Shown here: positions 246 through 53,612 of the stretch, one piece after another | How the letters are laid out: every line of letters starts with the position of its first letter | How positions within the stretch are numbered: position 1 is the stretch's first letter | Assembly: GCA_965231075.1 (NCBI GenBank) | Contig: OZ246412.1 | Coordinates: 463,282-527,281 of the forward strand | Reading direction: 5' to 3' | Origin: an uncultured Candidatus Saccharibacteria bacterium | Lineage (GTDB): Bacteria; Patescibacteriota; Minisyncoccia; RBG-13-40-8-A | DNA length: 64,000 nt | The notes under the pieces: generated by a model | What the model was told of the DNA's origin: nothing | What the model saw: only the letters and a program-made list of their open reading frames with translations | Database searches by the model: none | Program-made: the position numbers and the translations under genes

Positions 246-1568
246 TTATTCCGTTAGCAATGTCAGCGTTTTGTCTTTATAAACAATTCTCGATCTTAAG
301 TTTCCGAGCAACTCTCTTTTCTCTGATACCGATCCCTCTTTTAAAATATACTTTGCGTAATTTCGTATATCCATATCTTCTCTATTTTTGACCTTATCCG
401 TGCTACCCAATACCGATCTTTGAAATATATTGAATCTTGCAATTTCATCTTCTAATTTTTGTCGCATTCCAAGTTCATTGATATTTACCCTATCCAATAT
501 CTTCAATAACTCGGCAATTAATTCTTCTTCACGAATATATTTGTTCTTACAGTTGCGATCTACACCTCGACTACAACCATAATAAATATAATGAGCTAAG
601 GTGCCATTTTTGAGCGGTTTCCATTTTTCCTCGGCTGATATGCCGGACCCGCAATAACCACACGTAAATAGCTTTGTAAAAGCGAATTCTTTGTTTTCTC
701 TAACTATCTGATCTCGTTTTAATTGCACCTTGGCTTTTTCAAACAAATCTTGAGTGATAATTGGTTCATGTTTGCCGGTATACCAATTTCCGCTTTCTTT
801 GGGATGTTCAAAAACTCCATAATAGAATGGATTATCTAATATACGATAAACTCCACTGAGCGTAAGAGGTTTATTGCCTCTTGTATAAAAATTCAATTCA
901 AATTTAAGCCAGTTATATATCTTTCTACCCGAATAATGTTCAAACGCTACTTTTTCAAACATCTTTTTAATAATCGGTGCTCGCAATGGGTCAATGATGA
1001 TCTGACACTTCTTATCCATATGTTTTTGATTCAAATATCCAAGTGGTGCCATTCCTGGCCACAATCCCATTTCTACTCTTGTTCTTAATCCTCGCTTTAC
1101 ATTAATACCCCTGTTGTCATTTTCTAATTTCGCCTGAGATCCCAAAATCATCAGCAAGAATTTCTCATTTGGATTATTACCAAATCTTTGTCCAAATGTT
1201 CGTATGTCTAAGAGGGCACCCGAATCCATTAAATCTACAATTTTTCCTAAATCGCCAGCATTCCTTGAAATACGATCCGGCGCCCAAGTGAGAATACCAT
1301 TAAATTTACCCTGTTTTAATTCTTCAATAATCTCATTGAAGACTGGCCGTTGTCCAGTTTCTTTAGCTGAGTGCGATTCTCGCTTCATTGTTACTACTTC
1401 TAAATTCTCTCTTTCAGCCAATTGAAGCATCTCTTTGATTTGGCTATCGATAGAAAGGACTTGTCGTTCCTCTGATTCTGTTGATTTCCTCGCGTAAAGA
1501 CAATATTTAATTTTCGTTGGAACTATTGTTTTGCCCGTAGTCCCCATGGGCATTTGCGCTGTATTCAT
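246..1568 (-). CDS. large serine recombinase (resolvase/invertase catalytic domain + recombinase domain + zinc ribbon)
   Basis: N-terminal YARKSTESEERQ..SIDSQ serine-recombinase catalytic motif; C-terminal CGYCGSG...YYGCS zinc-ribbon; 440 aa typical of phage/ICE large serine integrases. Confidence 0.85.
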   Translation of the reverse strand: MNTAQMPMGTTGKTIVPTKIKYCLYARKSTESEERQVLSIDSQIKEMLQLAERENLEVVTMKRESHSAKETGQRPVFNEIIEELKQGKFNGILTWAPDRISRNAGDLGKIVDLMDSGALLDIRTFGQRFGNNPNEKFLLMILGSQAKLENDNRGINVKRGLRTRVEMGLWPGMAPLGYLNQKHMDKKCQIIIDPLRAPIIKKMFEKVAFEHYSGRKIYNWLKFELNFYTRGNKPLTLSGVYRILDNPFYYGVFEHPKESGNWYTGKHEPIITQDLFEKAKVQLKRDQIVRENKEFAFTKLFTCGYCGSGISAEEKWKPLKNGTLAHYIYYGCSRGVDRNCKNKYIREEELIAELLKILDRVNINELGMRQKLEDEIARFNIFQRSVLGSTDKVKNREDMDIRNYAKYILKEGSVSEKRELLGNLRSRIVYKDKTLTLLTE

Positions 1569-1662: not shown

Positions 1663-2988
1663 CTACATCATCGGATTATCGTAAGGGTCAAAACGTTCCT
1701 CTTCTTCCTCTTCTGTGTCGTAATCATAAAAACCTGAATCATTATTTATTTTGCTCTCAATTATAGAGGCGTAACGATGAACATCGGCAGCATGAGATGT
1801 CCAATTATGATACGGAACTTCTCTAAACATATTTTTCTTATCATCCCATTCTCGTTTATATTCCGAAATGGCATTAATCCACAACGCACAATTGTTTTCA
1901 TCAACCATTAACATATTAAACGCGAATTTACCCATCTGAATGCCTTCATCAACTCCAAGTCTAGAATCAATAACGCTAAAGGATATACCAAGATCTTTAG
2001 CATAATCAATTCTCGTTTTTCCTGTACTTGTTTCTCTGGTGTTGATATCATGAGGCGCAAAATGTTTTCCGTAATTATATTCTTTTTGTTTTACTGCCAA
2101 CACGGCCTGATCGATCCCATCATTCTCGGTCCCTTGCCAATAATCAATCATATGCAACATTGCTCCGACGCGTTGATAAAATCCGATTGCCATAGCTGGA
2201 CCCACGCCTATATCCCACACAGTATGCACTTTAAATTCTTTTCTCCAAGGAACCATGCCTATACGATTATCGTTTCTTAACATCGCCAGTTCTTCTGCAT
2301 AGACCGCACCCTTAGTCGAAGCATTAAATGAGCAATAAAGCTCTTGCATAAATTCCTCGTGCGACATTGTTCTTCTGGAATTTTCTATCTCTTTCTGGCT
2401 AATGGTTCCTGTATCATCTGCCGTAAGATGGCAAGTAAACCATTCGCTATCATTCTTGTGAGTCTCATATAATAGATAGAATTCATTTCTGCCCTTTGGC
2501 GTTCCAATCCAAATACCATATCCTCCGTTATCAATAAGCGTTGGCCGAATTACTTCAGTAAAGATATTACTCGGCTGCATGCCGTATTCATCGAATACGA
2601 CCCCGCTCAAACCAATTCCTCTTAATCGATCAGGGTTTTCTGCGCCATACAATGTTATTTTTGACCCGCCAGGAAATTCTACTGATAATTCTGATTCTTT
2701 ACATTTTACTCCTGGAAATCTCGTATATCTTTTCAAAATACTCCATCCGGCGCTTTTGGCCATCTTATAGGTTGGAGCAATATACGCATAGTTAGTGCCA
2801 GGATTTTTTATTGCACTAAATATAAGATAATTTAGGGCTGCAGTTGTTTTGCCCGCACGTCGATGCACAACAAGCACCATCCAACGTTTATCGGTCTCAT
2901 GAAATGGGATTGCCCAATTTCGTGGCCGATATAGACTTAAAGATTTTTTGTCCATAAGTTTAATGTTTCTGGTTATGATTAAACTCAA
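1663..2988 (-). CDS. phage terminase large subunit-like ATPase/nuclease
   Basis: Walker A HRRAGKTTAA, Walker B hhhFDEYG (VVFDEYGM), size 441 aa, immediately downstream of a small HTH gene. Confidence 0.7.
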   Translation of the reverse strand: MSLIITRNIKLMDKKSLSLYRPRNWAIPFHETDKRWMVLVVHRRAGKTTAALNYLIFSAIKNPGTNYAYIAPTYKMAKSAGWSILKRYTRFPGVKCKESELSVEFPGGSKITLYGAENPDRLRGIGLSGVVFDEYGMQPSNIFTEVIRPTLIDNGGYGIWIGTPKGRNEFYLLYETHKNDSEWFTCHLTADDTGTISQKEIENSRRTMSHEEFMQELYCSFNASTKGAVYAEELAMLRNDNRIGMVPWRKEFKVHTVWDIGVGPAMAIGFYQRVGAMLHMIDYWQGTENDGIDQAVLAVKQKEYNYGKHFAPHDINTRETSTGKTRIDYAKDLGISFSVIDSRLGVDEGIQMGKFAFNMLMVDENNCALWINAISEYKREWDDKKNMFREVPYHNWTSHAADVHRYASIIESKINNDSGFYDYDTEEEEEERFDPYDNPMM

Positions 2989-4650: not shown

Positions 4651-5364
4651 GTTTTTTGGCGATTATTAATTTTTATTTTTTTATGCTGATTAATATCGAC
4701 CGTGGCCTTCAGGAGCACACATTGATCAGTAGAACGCAAAACGAGGAACGCACAAATGCGTTCCTCGTATGATTAAAATGGAAAAATCCAGAAGTTAAAC
4801 CACAAAGATACGCATTGCAACGCAATGTTTTAATGATTTAACTTCCGGATTTTTACGAGCGATCTTCACTCAAGAATGTTGGGTCACTTCTGTTGTTCTG
4901 ATCTGATTTTGTGAGCACATTCACTCACAAAGCAATAAATACTGAACTATGCGACAGAAGGTTGAATAAACCTCGAAAAGTTTTTGGATCTATTTTATTT
5001 TTAATGCTCTATTTTAATGTTAGCAAATTTTATTAAAATGTCAAGTCCAACATTATGCCTAACAGCCCATAATGAGTCAACCTGTTGGTAACTCGACTTC
5101 GCAAAGCCATTAAAATGAGATAACATGGGATTGATGTAGAAATCGATTTAAGTTATAATTCAATTAACAATTAAATAGCTTATAAGCAGATCTAAACCAT
5201 TTAGAGAAATCTGATGGCATGATCCAAAAACGTTCAACACAGAAAGCTCTTAGTCAGAGCACGTGTTGAACGTCATATCAGGAAACTGATATGGGTCCCG
5301 CAAGGGATCGCTGGCTAGGAGCTTTGTGTTTCTCGCCAATAATAATTAAAATCTATACAAAAAC

Positions 5365-6291: not shown

Positions 6292-6492
6292 AGATACATA
6301 CAATTGAATACGTTAATTATCAAGAGTGTGGCGAGAGCACTGGCTCAATGACCCACCGGCAACCCTTTAAGGCGACTCCTCAAGGAAGGTGCCAATTCCA
6401 GCTCCAAAAGGAGAAAGATAAAAGGTCGATTTTTTATTACTCTTTCTTTGTGGAAAGAGTTTTTTAATTATTAAATTAGTAAAAATAAAAAT

Positions 6493-19622: not shown

Positions 19623-20591
19623 ATGAGTCACAAAATATTCTCAGAAAAAATTGATCTTATTCACAAGGCTCGCGAAGCCATGCTTTCGGCTGTTCAAATT
19701 TATAATAATCCACTCATCACATTTAAGACAGAATCTTTTATAGTTCTATCATTAATTGCGTGGACTTATATGCTTCATGCACACTATCGTTCTGAGAGAA
19801 TTGATTATCGTTATTCTACTATACCAAAAAAGCGCAAAAAATTTGTTCGTAATCCAGACGGAAGTATTCGTTATTGGGATCTAACGGAATGTATTTCCCG
19901 ACAAGCCTGTCCTCTCGACAAAGACACAAAAAATAATTTAGGCTTTCTGATAGGATTGCGGAATCAAATTGAACACAAAAAAGCTACGGGACTAGATTCA
20001 TATCTATCGGCTCGTTATCAAGCATGTGCCCTAAATTTTAATTATTACCTTAAAAAAATTCATGGAGAAAAATTTGGATTAGATCAAAGCCTAGCTCTAA
20101 GTTTACAATTTGCGGAACTCGATTATTCTCAATCAAAAATTATCAAAGATAAAGAAGGATTAATACCTCAGGATATAATTTCTTATATCGCTAATTTCGA
20201 TGGCAAACTATCAAATGCCGAGATAGAGAGTGACAGATTCGCATATAGATTACTTTTTACTAAAGTGGTTGCGAAAAGAAAAGGACAAGCAGATAGAGTT
20301 ATCGAGTTTATTGATCCAAATTCGAAGCTAGCCAAGAATATCTCTCAGCAATATTGGGTTAAAGAAGAAAAAGAGAAAGCAAAGTTTTCTGCGACTCAAG
20401 TAATCCAAAAAGTGCAAGAAGCTGGATTTAAAAGTTTTAGCATGCATCAACATACTGTTTTTTGGAAAGAGCGTGATGGCAAAAATCCCGACAAGGGATT
20501 CGGGGTAATTGTGGTTAAAACATGGTGTTGGTACCAAAATTGGATTGATTGCATAATCAACGAACTTAATAATGAAAAAACGGACAAATGA
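19623..20591 (+). CDS. HEPN-domain protein (Rx4-6H motif), Abi-like
   Basis: alpha-helical protein with GLRNQIEHKK (R-x4-H HEPN signature). Confidence 0.55.
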   Translation: MSHKIFSEKIDLIHKAREAMLSAVQIYNNPLITFKTESFIVLSLIAWTYMLHAHYRSERIDYRYSTIPKKRKKFVRNPDGSIRYWDLTECISRQACPLDKDTKNNLGFLIGLRNQIEHKKATGLDSYLSARYQACALNFNYYLKKIHGEKFGLDQSLALSLQFAELDYSQSKIIKDKEGLIPQDIISYIANFDGKLSNAEIESDRFAYRLLFTKVVAKRKGQADRVIEFIDPNSKLAKNISQQYWVKEEKEKAKFSATQVIQKVQEAGFKSFSMHQHTVFWKERDGKNPDKGFGVIVVKTWCWYQNWIDCIINELNNEKTDK

Positions 20592-21415: not shown

Positions 21416-21877
21416 ATGTTAATGACAGAAAAAATAATTAAAGTTGAAAAGAATATAAATAATATTTTATTCTGGATATGTTTTTTTGTAACTATTATCG
21501 CCATGTTTATGGCTTTTTTAGAATTTTTTGCCCGTGGTGAATTTCCCACATCTAAAATCGGATTATTCTATATCGGAGTTTTGGCAATTTATTCTTTCCA
21601 CAAAGAGGCACTAAGATTCTTGGAACATGCCCAAACAGAAAAAACCCAGAAAAAGGGAGAATTATTCGTTTACGCTTGGATCATTATTGCGGCAATTTTA
21701 CATCTTGTGAACTTTATAACGAAGAATTATTATGTTATTGGTGATAACGGTGAACATCTTTTGGGCTTAACAAATATAAGTTACACTGCACTAGAGGTTG
21801 GCGCGGTATTTGTTTTCGCAAGAATTTTAAAATTGTTAATGACAAGGTTTTACTATAAAAATAATTCACCCCGTTAA
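21416..21877 (+). CDS. hypothetical membrane protein
   Basis: 153 aa, 4 hydrophobic helices. Confidence 0.4.
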   Translation: MLMTEKIIKVEKNINNILFWICFFVTIIAMFMAFLEFFARGEFPTSKIGLFYIGVLAIYSFHKEALRFLEHAQTEKTQKKGELFVYAWIIIAAILHLVNFITKNYYVIGDNGEHLLGLTNISYTALEVGAVFVFARILKLLMTRFYYKNNSPR

Positions 21878-21920
21878 ATATCCCGCATTGCGGGATCCTG
21901 CTATGCAGGATTTAACAGGG
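21869..21920. promoter_or_regulatory. structured intergenic element copy A (11-bp inverted repeat ccccgttaaat/atttaacaggg enclosing two GC hairpins), 9 nt upstream of ATG 21930
   Basis: hairpins atcccgcattgcgggat and cctgctatgcagg read directly; same architecture at 33400-33451 and 52860-52909. Confidence 0.6.
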
Positions 21921-21929
21921 TAAAAAAAC

Positions 21930-22502
21930 ATGGATATTATTAAACCAATAAAAAAATTAATCGAACCAGAACCAGCTCCGACGCTCGTTGAAGACGAGGT
22001 CGGAGTCCCGACTTCCCCAGAGGAGAACGTCGGGAAAACCACACTACAAACTTTCGAGTGGGAAGCGCCAGAATTTGAGAAACATAACAAATCGGGTTCT
22101 TGGTTTGTGTTGCCAGCGATTATTACAATTATTGTTGGGGTGATTGCTATCGCCACAGAGAATATTTTATTTTTAATTTTAATTTTGTTGGGATTTTTTA
22201 CTTTCTATGTTTATGCCAAAAAAGAACCGGGAATAATAAAATTTAAAATTAACGAGAAAGGAATTGAAATTGACGGAAAACTATACGATTTTAGTTCGAT
22301 CAAATCTTTTTGGATTTTTTATAACCCGCCCACAGAAAAAGAAATTAGTATTCGTAGTCGAAAAACATCCTCACCGTATATTAAAATTCCTTTGGCCGAA
22401 CAAAACCCAAACGAAATTCGAAAATACTTATTAAGATTTTTACCGGAAAAAAGACACAAAGAATCTCTGGTTGATATCTGGATGAAACGAGTTGGATTTT
22501 AA
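21930..22502 (+). CDS. hypothetical membrane protein
   Basis: 190 aa, two central TM helices; preceded by element copy A. Confidence 0.4.
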   Translation: MDIIKPIKKLIEPEPAPTLVEDEVGVPTSPEENVGKTTLQTFEWEAPEFEKHNKSGSWFVLPAIITIIVGVIAIATENILFLILILLGFFTFYVYAKKEPGIIKFKINEKGIEIDGKLYDFSSIKSFWIFYNPPTEKEISIRSRKTSSPYIKIPLAEQNPNEIRKYLLRFLPEKRHKESLVDIWMKRVGF

Positions 22503-33027: not shown

Positions 33028-33387
33028 CTATTGCAATCCACTACATTCGTTCGTAAATCTGAATAATCCAGATATTCCAACTCCACCAAGAAAACCTTCA
33101 ACCAATGAAATTAGAATCATGGCACAGAAGATTATTGCAACACCAATTAACGCGTTGATGATCATTTTCTTTGCTCCGTCAGCTTTCTCGCTATCACCCT
33201 TAGATAACATGTATTGAATACCTCCTAAAATTAAGAAGATAACAGCAATACCAAAACCAACAACCGCTAAAATCATTTTAACTTTAACAAAAATGTTGCA
33301 AAGAATGACCGTTGGCTCTAATGCTGCACTAGCAACAAATGGCAAAACTAACAACGATAACATTATAACTGGTAATATTTTTTTCAT
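33028..33387 (-). CDS. VirB2/TrbC-like small membrane protein (paralog 1 of 3)
   Basis: signal peptide + GGIQYMLSKGDSEKADGAKKMIINALIGVAIIF segment. Confidence 0.45.
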   Translation of the reverse strand: MKKILPVIMLSLLVLPFVASAALEPTVILCNIFVKVKMILAVVGFGIAVIFLILGGIQYMLSKGDSEKADGAKKMIINALIGVAIIFCAMILISLVEGFLGGVGISGLFRFTNECSGLQ

Positions 33388-33399
33388 ATTTGTTTTTTA

Positions 33400-33451
33400 C
33401 CCTGTTAAATATTCCGCCCCGCGGAATCATGCTTCGCATGATTTAACAGGG
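33400..33451. promoter_or_regulatory. structured intergenic element copy B (ccctgttaaat/atttaacaggg inverted repeat, two hairpins), 12 nt upstream of minus-strand ATG at 33387
   Basis: hairpins attccgccccgcggaat and catgcttcgcatg; compensatory substitutions relative to copy A. Confidence 0.6.
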
Positions 33452-33497
33452 TGAACTATGTTTATTTCTCGACCTTTGAAATATTTTTTAATTGACA

Positions 33498-43329: not shown

Positions 43330-43389
43330 GGGCGTGTAGCTCAGCTGGTTAGCCTCTGGCCCTACGGGCCATAGGCCCGGAGGGAGCAC
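43330..43389 (+). pseudogene. 5' fragment of tRNA-Ile gene (first 22 nt identical to 43667-43688) interrupted by 33-nt GC-rich insert, then gagcac
   Basis: gggcgtgtagctcagctggtta identical to the intact tRNA start 337 bp downstream. Confidence 0.6.
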
Positions 43390-43398
43390 TCATATGAC

Positions 43399-43650
43399 AT
43401 GTTTTACGTTTATCTTTTGAAAAGCTTAAAAGACAACAATTATTATATTGGTCAAACCGACAATATTAAAAGCAGATTAGATTACCATAACGGCGGGAAA
43501 GTTAAATCAACGAAGAATCGAATACCGTTTATTCTAATCGGAACAGAAGAATATCAAACGAGAAATGAATCGAGATGGCATGAATACACATTAAAGAATA
43601 ATACAAACGAAAAGCGAAAATTTATAAATAAATTTTCGCCCAAACCATAA
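43399..43650 (+). CDS. stand-alone GIY-YIG nuclease domain protein
   Basis: 83 aa; VYLLKS..YYIGQT..R..H..G GIY-YIG core. Confidence 0.7.
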   Translation: MFYVYLLKSLKDNNYYIGQTDNIKSRLDYHNGGKVKSTKNRIPFILIGTEEYQTRNESRWHEYTLKNNTNEKRKFINKFSPKP

Positions 43651-43666
43651 AATTAAGACCATTGTC

Positions 43667-43740
43667 GGGCGTGTAGCTCAGCTGGTTAGAGCACGGCTCT
43701 TATAAAGCCGGGGTCGATGGTTCGAGTCCATCCACGCCCA
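43667..43740 (+). tRNA. tRNA-Ile (anticodon TAT)
   Basis: acceptor gggcgtg/cacgccc, D gctc/gagc, anticodon stem cggct/agccg loop cttataa, T-arm gatgg ttcgagt ccatc. Confidence 0.85.
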
Positions 43741-47180: not shown

Positions 47181-47229
47181 GACCGACCGCAGTCGGTCGA
47201 GATAGAGTGGGATCCCGCATTGCGGGATC
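47181..47229. repeat. pair of GC hairpins in the infB-rbfA spacer; second hairpin gatcccgcattgcgggatc is identical to hairpin 1 of element copy A
   Basis: gaccgaccgcagtcggtc and gatcccgcattgcgggatc read directly. Confidence 0.55.
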
Positions 47230-49246: not shown

Positions 49247-49334
49247 ATTTTTTACGTTCGGACCTGTCCATCTTTGGCGGAGAGTGGAGGATTTTCCGCC
49301 CAAGGCGGACCAGCCTCGGGCTGGGAACTACATT

Positions 49335-52470: not shown

Positions 52471-52590
52471 AAACTTATATTTACTTAGATATTCTTAATT
52501 TACCTTAAAATTTAATTTTCTGCAACCCCGACGCAAGGTCGGGGTAAAGTTTACTCTGTCATCAATGGGGCTCGACGCAATGCGAGATCG

Positions 52591-52652: not shown

Positions 52653-52850
52653 TTAAATTTTAGTTACATTTGTCGCGTTTGGTCCTTTTGGAGAATCAGC
52701 CTTGTCAAAAGACACATTGTCTCCAACTTTCAAATCCTCGAAAGTTACGCCCTTAAGTTCATTTTTGTGAAAAAATAAATCTTTAGCCTCACCTTCAACA
52801 GCGATGAATCCAAACCCTTTTTCGTTAAGGTTTTTTATTGTTCCTGTCAT
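52653..52850 (-). CDS. cspA: cold-shock protein (CspA family)
   Basis: MTGTIKNLNEKGFGFIAVEG...DLFFH RNP motifs; 65 aa. Confidence 0.95.
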   Translation of the reverse strand: MTGTIKNLNEKGFGFIAVEGEAKDLFFHKNELKGVTFEDLKVGDNVSFDKADSPKGPNATNVTKI

Positions 52851-52859
52851 GTTTGCTCG

Positions 52860-52909
52860 CCCTGTTAAATTTCGCCTACGGCGAACCCGCTTCGCGGGAT
52901 TTAACGGGG
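52860..52909. promoter_or_regulatory. structured intergenic element copy C (ccctgttaaat/atttaacgggg inverted repeat, two hairpins), 9 nt upstream of csp start codon
   Basis: hairpins ttcgcctacggcgaa and cccgcttcgcggg. Confidence 0.6.
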
Positions 52910-53030
52910 TAAATTAATGATTAACGTTTTAAGGTCTTCCCTAAAGTTTGGTTTCAAAAATAAACTCGACTAAATTTTTATTAAGCAACCCACTTGTACC
53001 GTGTAATCATAACACGTATCGAATAAATAA

Positions 53031-53612
53031 TCAATCTCTTCTTTCTCGCACAAATCCGATGCGTTTATTCTGCGCTGTTCTTTTTATAAAATGTGCTAGG
53101 GCTTTTTTGTACATACTCGCATCATATTGTTTATAATCATCAATATATGCTATGCGAATACGTTGATAGGAGGGTGGCATTTTTTGAAAATGTTTCCAAG
53201 CCTCTTTGTTTGCTTTTAACGCCTTTAAGGTTTCTGGAGAAATTTTGAGTTTTTCTTCTTTGTCTGTTTTGGGATTAAACGCATGTACAACAGCTTTAAA
53301 TCCCCATTTTGTCATTTTGTTTTCTTTAATAAGTTCGCGTATGCGTTCTTTGTTCATTTGCGAAAGTACACTATTAGGTCTGCGCGGAGAAAAACGTTGA
53401 GCAAAAGATTCTGTGTCGATTTTTTTGACAGTGCTATCTATCCATCCGTAAGCAAGAGCCTCTAAAACTGCGTCGTCATACGAAATGCGAGGCTTCTTGG
53501 TTTCTTTACGATAATATACGAGCCAAATTTCGTTCTGCTTTTTATGATTTTTCGCTAACCACTTCCGCCAGTCCTTTCTATTAGTTACATATAATTTATT
53601 TTTGATTTCCAT
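53031..53612 (-). CDS. YdeI/OmpD-associated family-like protein
   Basis: 193 aa basic protein; EIWLVYYRK...AYGWIDS pattern; weak. Confidence 0.4.
   Translation of the reverse strand: MEIKNKLYVTNRKDWRKWLAKNHKKQNEIWLVYYRKETKKPRISYDDAVLEALAYGWIDSTVKKIDTESFAQRFSPRRPNSVLSQMNKERIRELIKENKMTKWGFKAVVHAFNPKTDKEEKLKISPETLKALKANKEAWKHFQKMPPSYQRIRIAYIDDYKQYDASMYKKALAHFIKRTAQNKRIGFVRERRD

Follow-up and report, generated by a model that had tools for sequence, protein, structure and literature searches.

Very small palindromic repeats with conserved termini in intergenic DNA of Patescibacteria and other bacterial phyla

We analysed 64,000 nt (G+C = 36%) from an uncultured Candidatus Saccharibacteria bacterium (contig OZ246412.1, positions 463,282 to 527,281), referred to below as the window. 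A short palindromic element occurs three times in the window, at 21869–21920, 33400–33451 and 52860–52909, exactly where the original prediction had placed it. That prediction took the element to be a structured RNA (thermosensor or attenuator) that occludes the ribosome-binding site (RBS) of the following gene or, alternatively, a miniature inverted-repeat element that prefers RBS-proximal sites. The explanation that fits our results best, and which we hold with moderate confidence, is that the copies belong to a widespread family of palindromic DNA repeats that are very small and non-autonomous, of the same kind as repetitive extragenic palindromic (REP) sequences and miniature inverted-repeat transposable elements (MITEs). 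Copies of this family are scattered through intergenic DNA with no preferred orientation, two of the three window sites are empty in close relatives, some copies are nested within others, they lack target-site duplications, and their interiors turn over. A stem that is the same base for base across phyla, a replaceable interior, a conserved asymmetric flank and the missing enzyme are notable features of the family.

Structure of the element

Folding gives each window copy an 11-bp stem bearing two GC hairpins with 3-nt loops, in line with the two hairpins described originally (Table 1). The three copies have folding energies of −23 to −35 kcal/mol as RNA (z −2.5 to −6.5) and −17.4 to −20.3 kcal/mol as DNA (z −5.2 to −8.1). 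The 11-bp arms of the proposed outer repeat are indeed present, except that the left arm of copy 1 is CCCCGTTAAAT and the right arm of copy 3 is ATTTAACGGGG; these two copies thus carry a C/G variant in one arm each, which gives a C.A mismatch on the mRNA strand and a G.U pair only on the antisense strand. When up to one mismatch is allowed on both strands, the arm 11-mer CCCTGTTAAAT occurs six times in the window, and all six are arms of the three copies. The mean in shuffled windows is 1.82, and none of 100 shuffles reached six. With filters off, a window search using a covariance model for the outer stem yields the three copies alone (E 2.8e-16 to 4.3e-11); the next match has E = 0.38.

The hairpins of the three copies are unrelated in sequence, and therefore no compensatory change can be read among them, contrary to what had been claimed. 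The GC hairpin GATCCCGCATTGCGGGATC in the infB–rbfA spacer is identical to hairpin 1 of copy 1 and has no arms, as had been noticed, which shows that hairpin modules also recur without them.

A scan of one genome per species with the exact-arm pattern CCCTGTTAAAT-N20-45-ATTTAACRGGG provided 130 copies for comparison (L-numbers such as L001 or L213 are labels of the loci examined). Conservation extends over the 11-nt arms and the adjoining 4 nt on either side (left, TTYA; right, TRAA); farther out the flanks are random. The family is defined by 15-nt inverted termini, TTYA-CCCYGTTAAAT ... ATTTAACRGGG-TRAA. Of 133 copies, 87 have T.G or C.A at flank position 2 and only 22 a Watson–Crick pair; where both flanks are canonical, 38 copies have TTTA/TGAA or its reverse complement, as against 5 that are perfectly paired. 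Selection for a stem explains the T.G and C.A combinations less well than an asymmetric target or end sequence does, and the asymmetry looks like a fixed 8-mer, TTTA-TGAA, which would be either an insertion target or the result of slightly different left and right ends.

Sister subfamilies that occur in the same genomes (CCCCGTTAGAA/TTCTAACGGGG, CCCCGTGAGAT/ATCTCACGGGG and CCCCGTGTAAT/ATTACACGGGG) have the same flanks while their inner arm bases covary, and the outer TTYA-CCC-Y-GT is therefore the most conserved part. Two more pairs, again with shared genomes and flanks, are CCCTGTGAAAT/ATTTCACAGGG and CCCTCCTAAAT/ATTTAGGAGGG.

The interior ranges in length from 10 to about 125 nt, with or without hairpins, and is not conserved in sequence. 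Two GC hairpins are usual in Patescibacteria and Desulfobacterota; other copies have a single hairpin (L023, L053), 40 nt without a hairpin (WOR-3 copies and L065) or a complete nested copy of the element (L103, L047, L033, L213). L110 and L118 have the same extended flanks around interiors that are reverse complements of each other. The loops are mostly 3 nt long and closed by C-G (TTC 16, TTT 13, AAA 12, GAA 8, GTA 7), and their polarity is not biased with respect to the flank asymmetry (58 purine-rich, 67 pyrimidine-rich). Such C-G-closed 3-nt loops, including mini-hairpins of the d(GCGAAGC) type, are characteristic of compact DNA palindromes and not of RNA tetraloops, and favour structure at the level of DNA.

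We note separately that the window contains more GC-rich triloop or tetraloop hairpins in AT-rich spacers, often paired and without conserved arms, at 47181–47229, 49295–49324 and 52525–52545.

Distribution, empty sites and turnover

A genome-wide search for the arm pattern had been suggested with the prediction; the scan of one genome per species gave at least 120 loci inside and outside Patescibacteria, including Desulfobacterota, WOR-3/Stahlbacteria and Omnitrophota. Among the matches listed there are many lineages of Patescibacteria, together with single matches in Armatimonadota, Acidobacteriota, Calditrichaceae, Cloacimonadota and Bacteroidota. Some copies are on megabase contigs, such as a 4.1-Mb contig of Desulfatiglandales, and one is on a 949-kb Doudnabacteria contig. 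Among 2.9 million viral contigs only one has the pattern. Matches in annotated plasmid and phage collections were only partial: none covers 80% of the query (best E-value 0.03), and they fall in the variable interior of the query. Loci that already hold one copy contain about 11 further diverged copies per 710 kb, while in 270,046 bases from relatives of the window organism there are none by either a relaxed pattern or the covariance model.

All the copies are intergenic. On rough calls of open reading frames (ORFs), the neighbouring genes are both on the plus strand in 36 cases and both on the minus strand in 32, convergent in 18 and divergent in 10. Of the 68 co-directional copies, 11 are ≤25 nt from the downstream start codon (8 of 65 when the window copies are left out); most are 30–400 nt from it, and a comparable number adjoin the upstream stop codon. 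Family-wide, the copies are at random positions relative to start codons, which had been named in advance as an outcome that would speak against the prediction, and the supposed preference for RBS-proximal sites is not supported. True compensatory changes are found only when orthologous or paralogous copies outside the window are compared.

The three insertions in the window sit in intergenic spacers, and two of the three sites are empty in close relatives. Copy 1 fills the entire spacer between the ORFs at 21416–21877 and 21930–22502, with the TAA stop codon of the first inside its left arm. Homologues of the downstream membrane protein were located and their contigs retrieved; in L123, L125 and L127 (75–79% protein identity) the site is empty, and the two genes overlap or are separated by 9 or 30 nt. 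Excision of CCCCG...CAGGG from the window copy leaves ...TCA-TAA AAAAAC ATG, in which an A-rich leader follows a normal stop. Copy 3 is within the 5' leader of csp, 9 nt before the ATG at 52850 (minus strand), inserted between the near-invariant leader sequence and AAACATG. Relatives were reached via csp, and in these the gene downstream of the upstream neighbour differs. The csp leaders of L209, L210 and L212 lack the element: there is nothing at the site in L212, and L209 (Csp 97% identical) and L210 each have another single GC hairpin there.

Evidence of proliferation comes from a genome in which three copies have near-identical interiors (JAHJSK01: L031, L035, L056), and from a 1-kb non-coding array at L065 1280–2300 containing at least eight copies from three arm subfamilies. 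Some copies in the array are arranged in tandem and share 4-nt spacers (TTCA/TGAA); the interiors, about 40 or 79 nt long, form no hairpins. A CRISPR-like reading of the array was rejected: adjacent "spacers" are tandem duplicates of about 70% identity, and isolated copies have no full repeats. In outline, the miniature inverted-repeat element that the original prediction offered as its alternative is supported by the empty sites, the nested copies, the near-identical copies within one genome and the patchy occurrence, although not with its preference for RBS-proximal sites.

Copies in Desulfobacterota and WOR-3 have their own lineage-specific extended contexts, and those in Desulfobacterota lie within a larger conserved element, some 200 nt long, that has 16-bp inverted ends of its own. 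This repeat, at L037 4395–4590 with homologous stretches in L026, L078, L082, L098 and others, has the ends CTTCGTAAAAAGTCCA...TGGACTTTTTACGAAT and a strong fold (z −6.9), occurs in several copies per genome, and contains the small element off-centre.

Two further arrangements were observed. In some Patescibacteria (L118 1–143, 1316–1518 and 3681–3825; also L110 and L113), several ribosomal-protein operon spacers share about 45 nt of conserved sequence to the left and to the right of a structured variable core, which can be the element, an element with variant arms (CCCTCCTAAAT/ATTTAGGAGGG) or unrelated hairpins. The copies at L005 679–734 and 6201–6256, which are separated by 5.5 kb, are exact reverse complements of one another, and the match extends at least 15 nt into the flanks at both ends; they represent a large inverted repeat or invertible segment, or else a fold-back assembly artefact.

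Origin of the element and its relation to known systems

If the copies are mobile repeats of the REP or MITE kind, their termini would be recognised by a trans-acting, sequence-specific DNA enzyme. Most likely this enzyme would act on a folded hairpin or cruciform, in the way that HUH transposases act on REPs or integron integrases on attC. It would place the element into AT-rich intergenic DNA without target duplication, preferentially at a TTTA-TGAA-like sequence, after which the short inverted arms would allow the interior to be flipped or replaced. A very stable three-way structure 9–12 nt upstream of a start codon, which at −23 to −35 kcal/mol falls within the stretch that the ribosome has to occupy, may alter expression, and a local effect on translation of the three window genes is possible, but this would probably not be the reason that the element exists. 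More speculatively, the elements might serve as DNA substrates for a recombination or transposition system that is undescribed, has spread horizontally, works on folded DNA and is common to Patescibacteria, Desulfobacterota, Omnitrophota and WOR-3. The logic of such a system would be like that of REPIN–RAYT or attC–IntI, with the 15-nt stem as recognition module and the hairpin top as exchangeable cargo, and either lasting activity of the enzyme or a benefit to the host would preserve the resident copies.

Several results weigh against the mobile-repeat explanation. No mobility gene is enriched near the copies in an all-against-all clustering of about 900 neighbour ORFs; the top clusters are FtsE-like ATPase, sigma factors, HU, RF2 and PilC, and the neighbours are housekeeping genes. 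This includes transposase, integrase and HUH genes, and no RAYT-like gene was found within about 4 kb of approximately 130 copies. An autonomous version was also not found, in that the 1.2 Mb of loci contain no arm pair around a coding interior, and arm pairs 140–6000 nt apart are in each case two separate small copies. Direct repeats of 2–9 bp are not above expectation at offsets 0–3; a modest excess at offsets 4–6 is due largely to the WOR-3 copies, in which the repeat belongs to a larger conserved unit. Classical MITE transposition of the DDE type is therefore unsupported, and the proposed mechanism rests on analogy. REPs and MITEs are normally confined to one lineage, and for them it is unusual that 22 or more bases are identical between phyla. 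Finally, the three window copies are not near-identical to each other, and there is therefore no sign of a very recent burst in the window.

A further difficulty is the constraint on resident copies. Copy 2 lies between two type IV secretion system (T4SS) pilin genes on the minus strand, 12 nt before the ATG at 33387, and the same site is occupied in L213, where the pilin is 61% identical. Arms and flanks (TTCA...TAAA) are identical at 30 of 30 positions between the window and L213, compared with about 77% in the adjoining spacer, and one hairpin has a compensatory change from C-G to T-A; the other hairpin is replaced in L213 by a degenerate nested copy. At the same site L215 has only ATTTAACGAGGTAAA, a decayed right arm, and there is nothing in L216 or L217. 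Another orthologous site is occupied in both L001 and L113, whose interiors are unrelated, and 14 Desulfobacterota copies have changes on both sides at 5 of 22 pairs. The orthologous identity, the occupied sites and the compensatory change indicate that resident copies are constrained or homogenised, which points to a host-level function or to an ongoing sequence-specific process rather than to simple selfish decay. The arms and their pairing could be kept over time by selection, by continuing recognition by an enzyme, or by mismatch correction in the folded palindrome.

The orthologous conservation and the cross-phylum identity make a host-protein site the most serious rival. On this explanation, to which we give a minor share of probability, the arm duplex would be bound or cut by a conserved host protein and would be kept by purifying selection. 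The protein might be an Xer-type tyrosine recombinase or a structure-specific nuclease, or the site might have an RNase III-like or mRNA-stabilising role as for REPs, and the identity of arms between distant phyla would reflect protein specificity rather than horizontal transfer. The L213 site, with its arms and flanks intact in a much less conserved spacer, and the site shared by L001 and L113 are both what would be expected, as is the higher number of convergent than divergent contexts (18 and 10), which is also seen for REPs. The explanation has to contend with the close relatives that have no element at the same sites and with the 270 kb of their DNA that contain no copy, which show that the element is not an essential host feature. 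Moreover, there is no XerC-like second arm or 6–8 bp central region, flank conservation stops after 4 nt, the arms face outward relative to a dif-type site, and nested and tandem copies look like insertions.

A cis-regulatory RNA, as originally predicted, we consider improbable. In a 5' leader, the outer stem would sequester the purine-rich arm or the region adjacent to the start codon, and translation would respond to temperature or to a stem-opening factor. It is true that all three window copies end shortly before an ATG (9, 12 and 9 nt for copies 1, 2 and 3), in agreement with the 9–12 nt given originally, and that the element, being palindromic, has AACAGGG in its 3' arm whichever way it is oriented. 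Also consistent with regulation are the location of copy 3 in a promoter-proximal csp leader, the other small GC hairpins that L209 and L210 carry at the same spot, the very stable RNA folds of the window copies, and the compensatory changes between related copies. Family-wide, however, there is no positional rule: only the 11 of 68 co-directional copies described above are within 25 nt of a start codon, and others are at 3' ends of genes or between convergent genes. Nor is there a sense bias for G.U over C.A, since the wobble-compatible strand is sense in 19 copies and antisense in 24, and the mRNA strand of copies 1 and 3 has C.A. The purine-rich arm is, as was claimed, the only sequence resembling a Shine–Dalgarno (SD) sequence upstream of each ATG, but this is uninformative because most window genes have no SD sequence. 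Their leaders are A/T-rich (for example AAAAAC ATG), which implies SD-independent initiation in this organism, and the A-rich leaders lie outside the element. The interiors without hairpins and the prevalence of triloops over RNA-type tetraloops also argue against an RNA that acts by occluding the RBS as the explanation for the family.

A search against Rfam, also suggested with the prediction, found no family: gathering and permissive scans with Rfam 15 gave no match at the three sites or in 8 related loci, and the best sub-threshold matches were chance hits to miRNA or snoRNA models. RNA thermometers and leader hairpins that sequester the SD sequence (ROSE, fourU, the cspA 5' untranslated region) have in common with the element a stable stem beside the start codon, here at three genes including csp; the element differs in having no fixed distance or orientation family-wide, an SD-poor host, no Rfam match, and stems that are far more stable (−23 to −35 kcal/mol) than known thermometers.

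Chance or assembly artefact, that is, terminator-like palindromes that happen to share a motif, or mis-binned contigs behind the cross-phylum matches, is suggested by weak atypical matches (for example Clostridium thermobutyricum L069, 28 bits, with non-canonical flanks) and by several "Gammaproteobacteria" or "Bacteroidales" co-assembly bins with AT-rich, Patescibacteria-like copies, but is effectively refuted by the window arm count above every shuffle, by model E-values of 1e-11 to 1e-18 and by long contigs of clearly different composition (the Desulfatiglandales and Doudnabacteria contigs), as well as being at odds with the absence of a T-run after any of the three window copies and with the lineage-specific contexts in Desulfobacterota and WOR-3.

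The element fails at least one defining feature of each of the closest known systems. REPs and REPINs with their RAYT enzymes (PMC3116915, PMC3337134) are also short extragenic palindromes, many per genome and without target duplication; they too form hairpins in single-stranded DNA, lie mostly in co-directional or convergent spacers, persist for long periods and occur in clusters or tandems. The element lacks the GTAG-type 5' tetranucleotide of REPs (GTAG/GTGG), having TTYA/TRAA flanks instead. A REPIN consists of two inverted REPs, whereas the two inner hairpins of the element are unrelated and its conserved part is the outer stem. In addition, REPINs are lineage-specific and mostly vertically inherited, while the element has the same 22 bases in several phyla, and the single-copy RAYT gene flanked by REPs has no counterpart adjoining the approximately 130 copies.

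Bacterial MITEs (Correia, RUP, ERIC and the Tn3-derived TIMEs) share with the element terminal inverted repeats and a short non-coding interior, and they are likewise intergenic and patchy, form families within genomes and contain nested insertions. The terminal repeats of the element are 11–15 nt long, with the outer bases the most conserved across subfamilies. It differs from MITEs in being much smaller (35–90 bp), in lacking target-site duplication and any parent insertion sequence found with the same ends, and in having an interior that is not conserved among copies of one genome.

Integron attC sites resemble the element in having a conserved stem base and a highly variable, sometimes branched top, in being recognised as structures, and in having the same short core across phyla. 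GTTAAAT and ATTTAAC fit the attC consensus, GTTRRRY/RYYYAAC, a correspondence of use only as a lead. The attC order is 5'-RYYYAAC (R'') ... GTTRRRY (R')-3', with an L box, an unpaired spacer and extrahelical bases. In the element the order is reversed, with GTTRRRY on the 5' arm and RYYYAAC on the 3' arm, and a strand flip cannot convert one into the other. The attC reading was therefore rejected; moreover, the stem of the element is continuous, without second box, spacer or extrahelical bases, and copies are not at cassette ends and have no intI nearby. A dif/Xer reading was rejected as well. The sequence TGTTAAAT equals the outer 8 nt of the XerD arm of E. coli dif, TTATGTTAAAT, which again is no more than a lead. 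A dif-type site has two inverted 11-bp arms around a centre of 6–8 bp; in the element the arms are 10–125 nt apart and outward-facing, conservation ends after 4 nt of flank, and there is no complete site. The window has no dif-like sites above chance, and its GC skew follows gene orientation only.

Hairpin elements of mitochondria were reportedly described by Paquin et al. in 2000. Mitochondrial double-hairpin elements, GC clusters of yeast mitochondrial DNA and repetitive hairpin-forming elements of sponges (PMC4478555, PMC2800124) are, like the element, tiny GC-rich hairpin or double-hairpin modules that invade AT-rich spacers in compact genomes; no enzyme is known for their mobility, and they are variably present between close relatives. 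They are organellar and lineage-specific and have no universal conserved outer stem; their defining part is the GC hairpins, and that of the element is the AT-rich arm of 11–15 nt.

No prior description of the element was found in the literature searched: queries with the exact DNA or RNA sequence returned chance primer matches only, and a search for MITEs or palindromic repeats in Patescibacteria or the candidate phyla radiation (CPR) returned nothing. Patescibacteria have tiny genomes, which are thought to be poor in mobile DNA. If they do share a hairpin element base for base with unrelated phyla of sediment and groundwater, it would be a marker of gene flow, and would point to an unidentified enzyme that recognises folded DNA. 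In genome scans such elements can be mistaken for riboswitch-like RNAs or terminators, and their insertion into csp and pilin leaders may change expression. The conserved stem and replaceable top also provide a test case for distinguishing covariation that arises from RNA function from symmetry at the level of DNA.

Other features of the window

The positions of the element copies and of other features are listed in Table 1.

Table 1. Positions of element copies and other features in the window
Feature	Position	Strand	Details
Copy 1 with 4-nt flanks (TTCA...TAAA)	21865–21924	.	arms 21869–21879 (CCCCGTTAAAT) and 21910–21920 (ATTTAACAGGG)
Copy 1 hairpins	21880–21896 and 21897–21909		
Copy 2 with canonical flanks (TTTA...TGAA on + strand)	33396–33455	.	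arms 33400–33410 and 33441–33451
Copy 2 hairpins	33411–33427 and 33428–33440		
Copy 3	52856–52913	.	arms 52860–52870 and 52899–52909 (ATTTAACGGGG)
Copy 3 hairpins	52871–52885 and 52886–52898		
Free-standing GC hairpin GATCCCGCATTGCGGGATC	47211–47229	.	infB–rbfA spacer, no arms
Promoter-like site TTGATT-17-TG-TATGAT	53006–53034	-	upstream of csp leader; hexamers conserved in alignment of relatives
csp 5' leader	52910–52998	-	about 90 nt, near-invariant among relatives (long runs of invariant columns)
Large serine recombinase	246–1568		within island at 1 to about 20000
Terminase large subunit	1663–2988		within island at 1 to about 20000
LOOT RNA	5189–5309		within island at 1 to about 20000
SAM riboswitch	6314–6424		within island at 1 to about 20000
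DUF3644 protein	19623–20591		within island at 1 to about 20000

The promoter-like site upstream of the csp leader implies that copy 3 is probably transcribed as part of the csp 5' untranslated region. The leader has no match in Rfam, the cspA thermoregulator included. It is near-invariant even though the flanking genes of the relatives differ, and may be an undescribed leader RNA of csp genes in Patescibacteria.

At L145 around position 1399, and at L211 and L212 around position 567, CCCTGTTAAGG lies in an apparent tRNA anticodon arm and is followed by GGTTCGAATCC; it matches the left arm of the element at 9 of 11 positions, probably by coincidence. From its GTT anticodon the gene would be a tRNA-Asn.

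At 43330–43398, 43399–43650 and 43667–43740 in the window, a small GIY-YIG nuclease gene is closely preceded by a 24-nt exact copy of the 5' end of tRNA-Ile(TAT) (GGGCGTGTAGCTCAGCTGGTTAG) and then by GC hairpins, and is followed by an intact tRNA-Ile. The arrangement suggests that a GIY-YIG cassette was inserted at a tRNA gene and that part of the target was duplicated, and in relatives small GIY-YIG genes are inserted at other spots (L123, L211/L212). The first part of the window, from 1 to about 20000, is apparently an integrated element or defence island, which in addition to the features listed in Table 1 holds a ParB-like ORF and methylase- and helicase-like ORFs.

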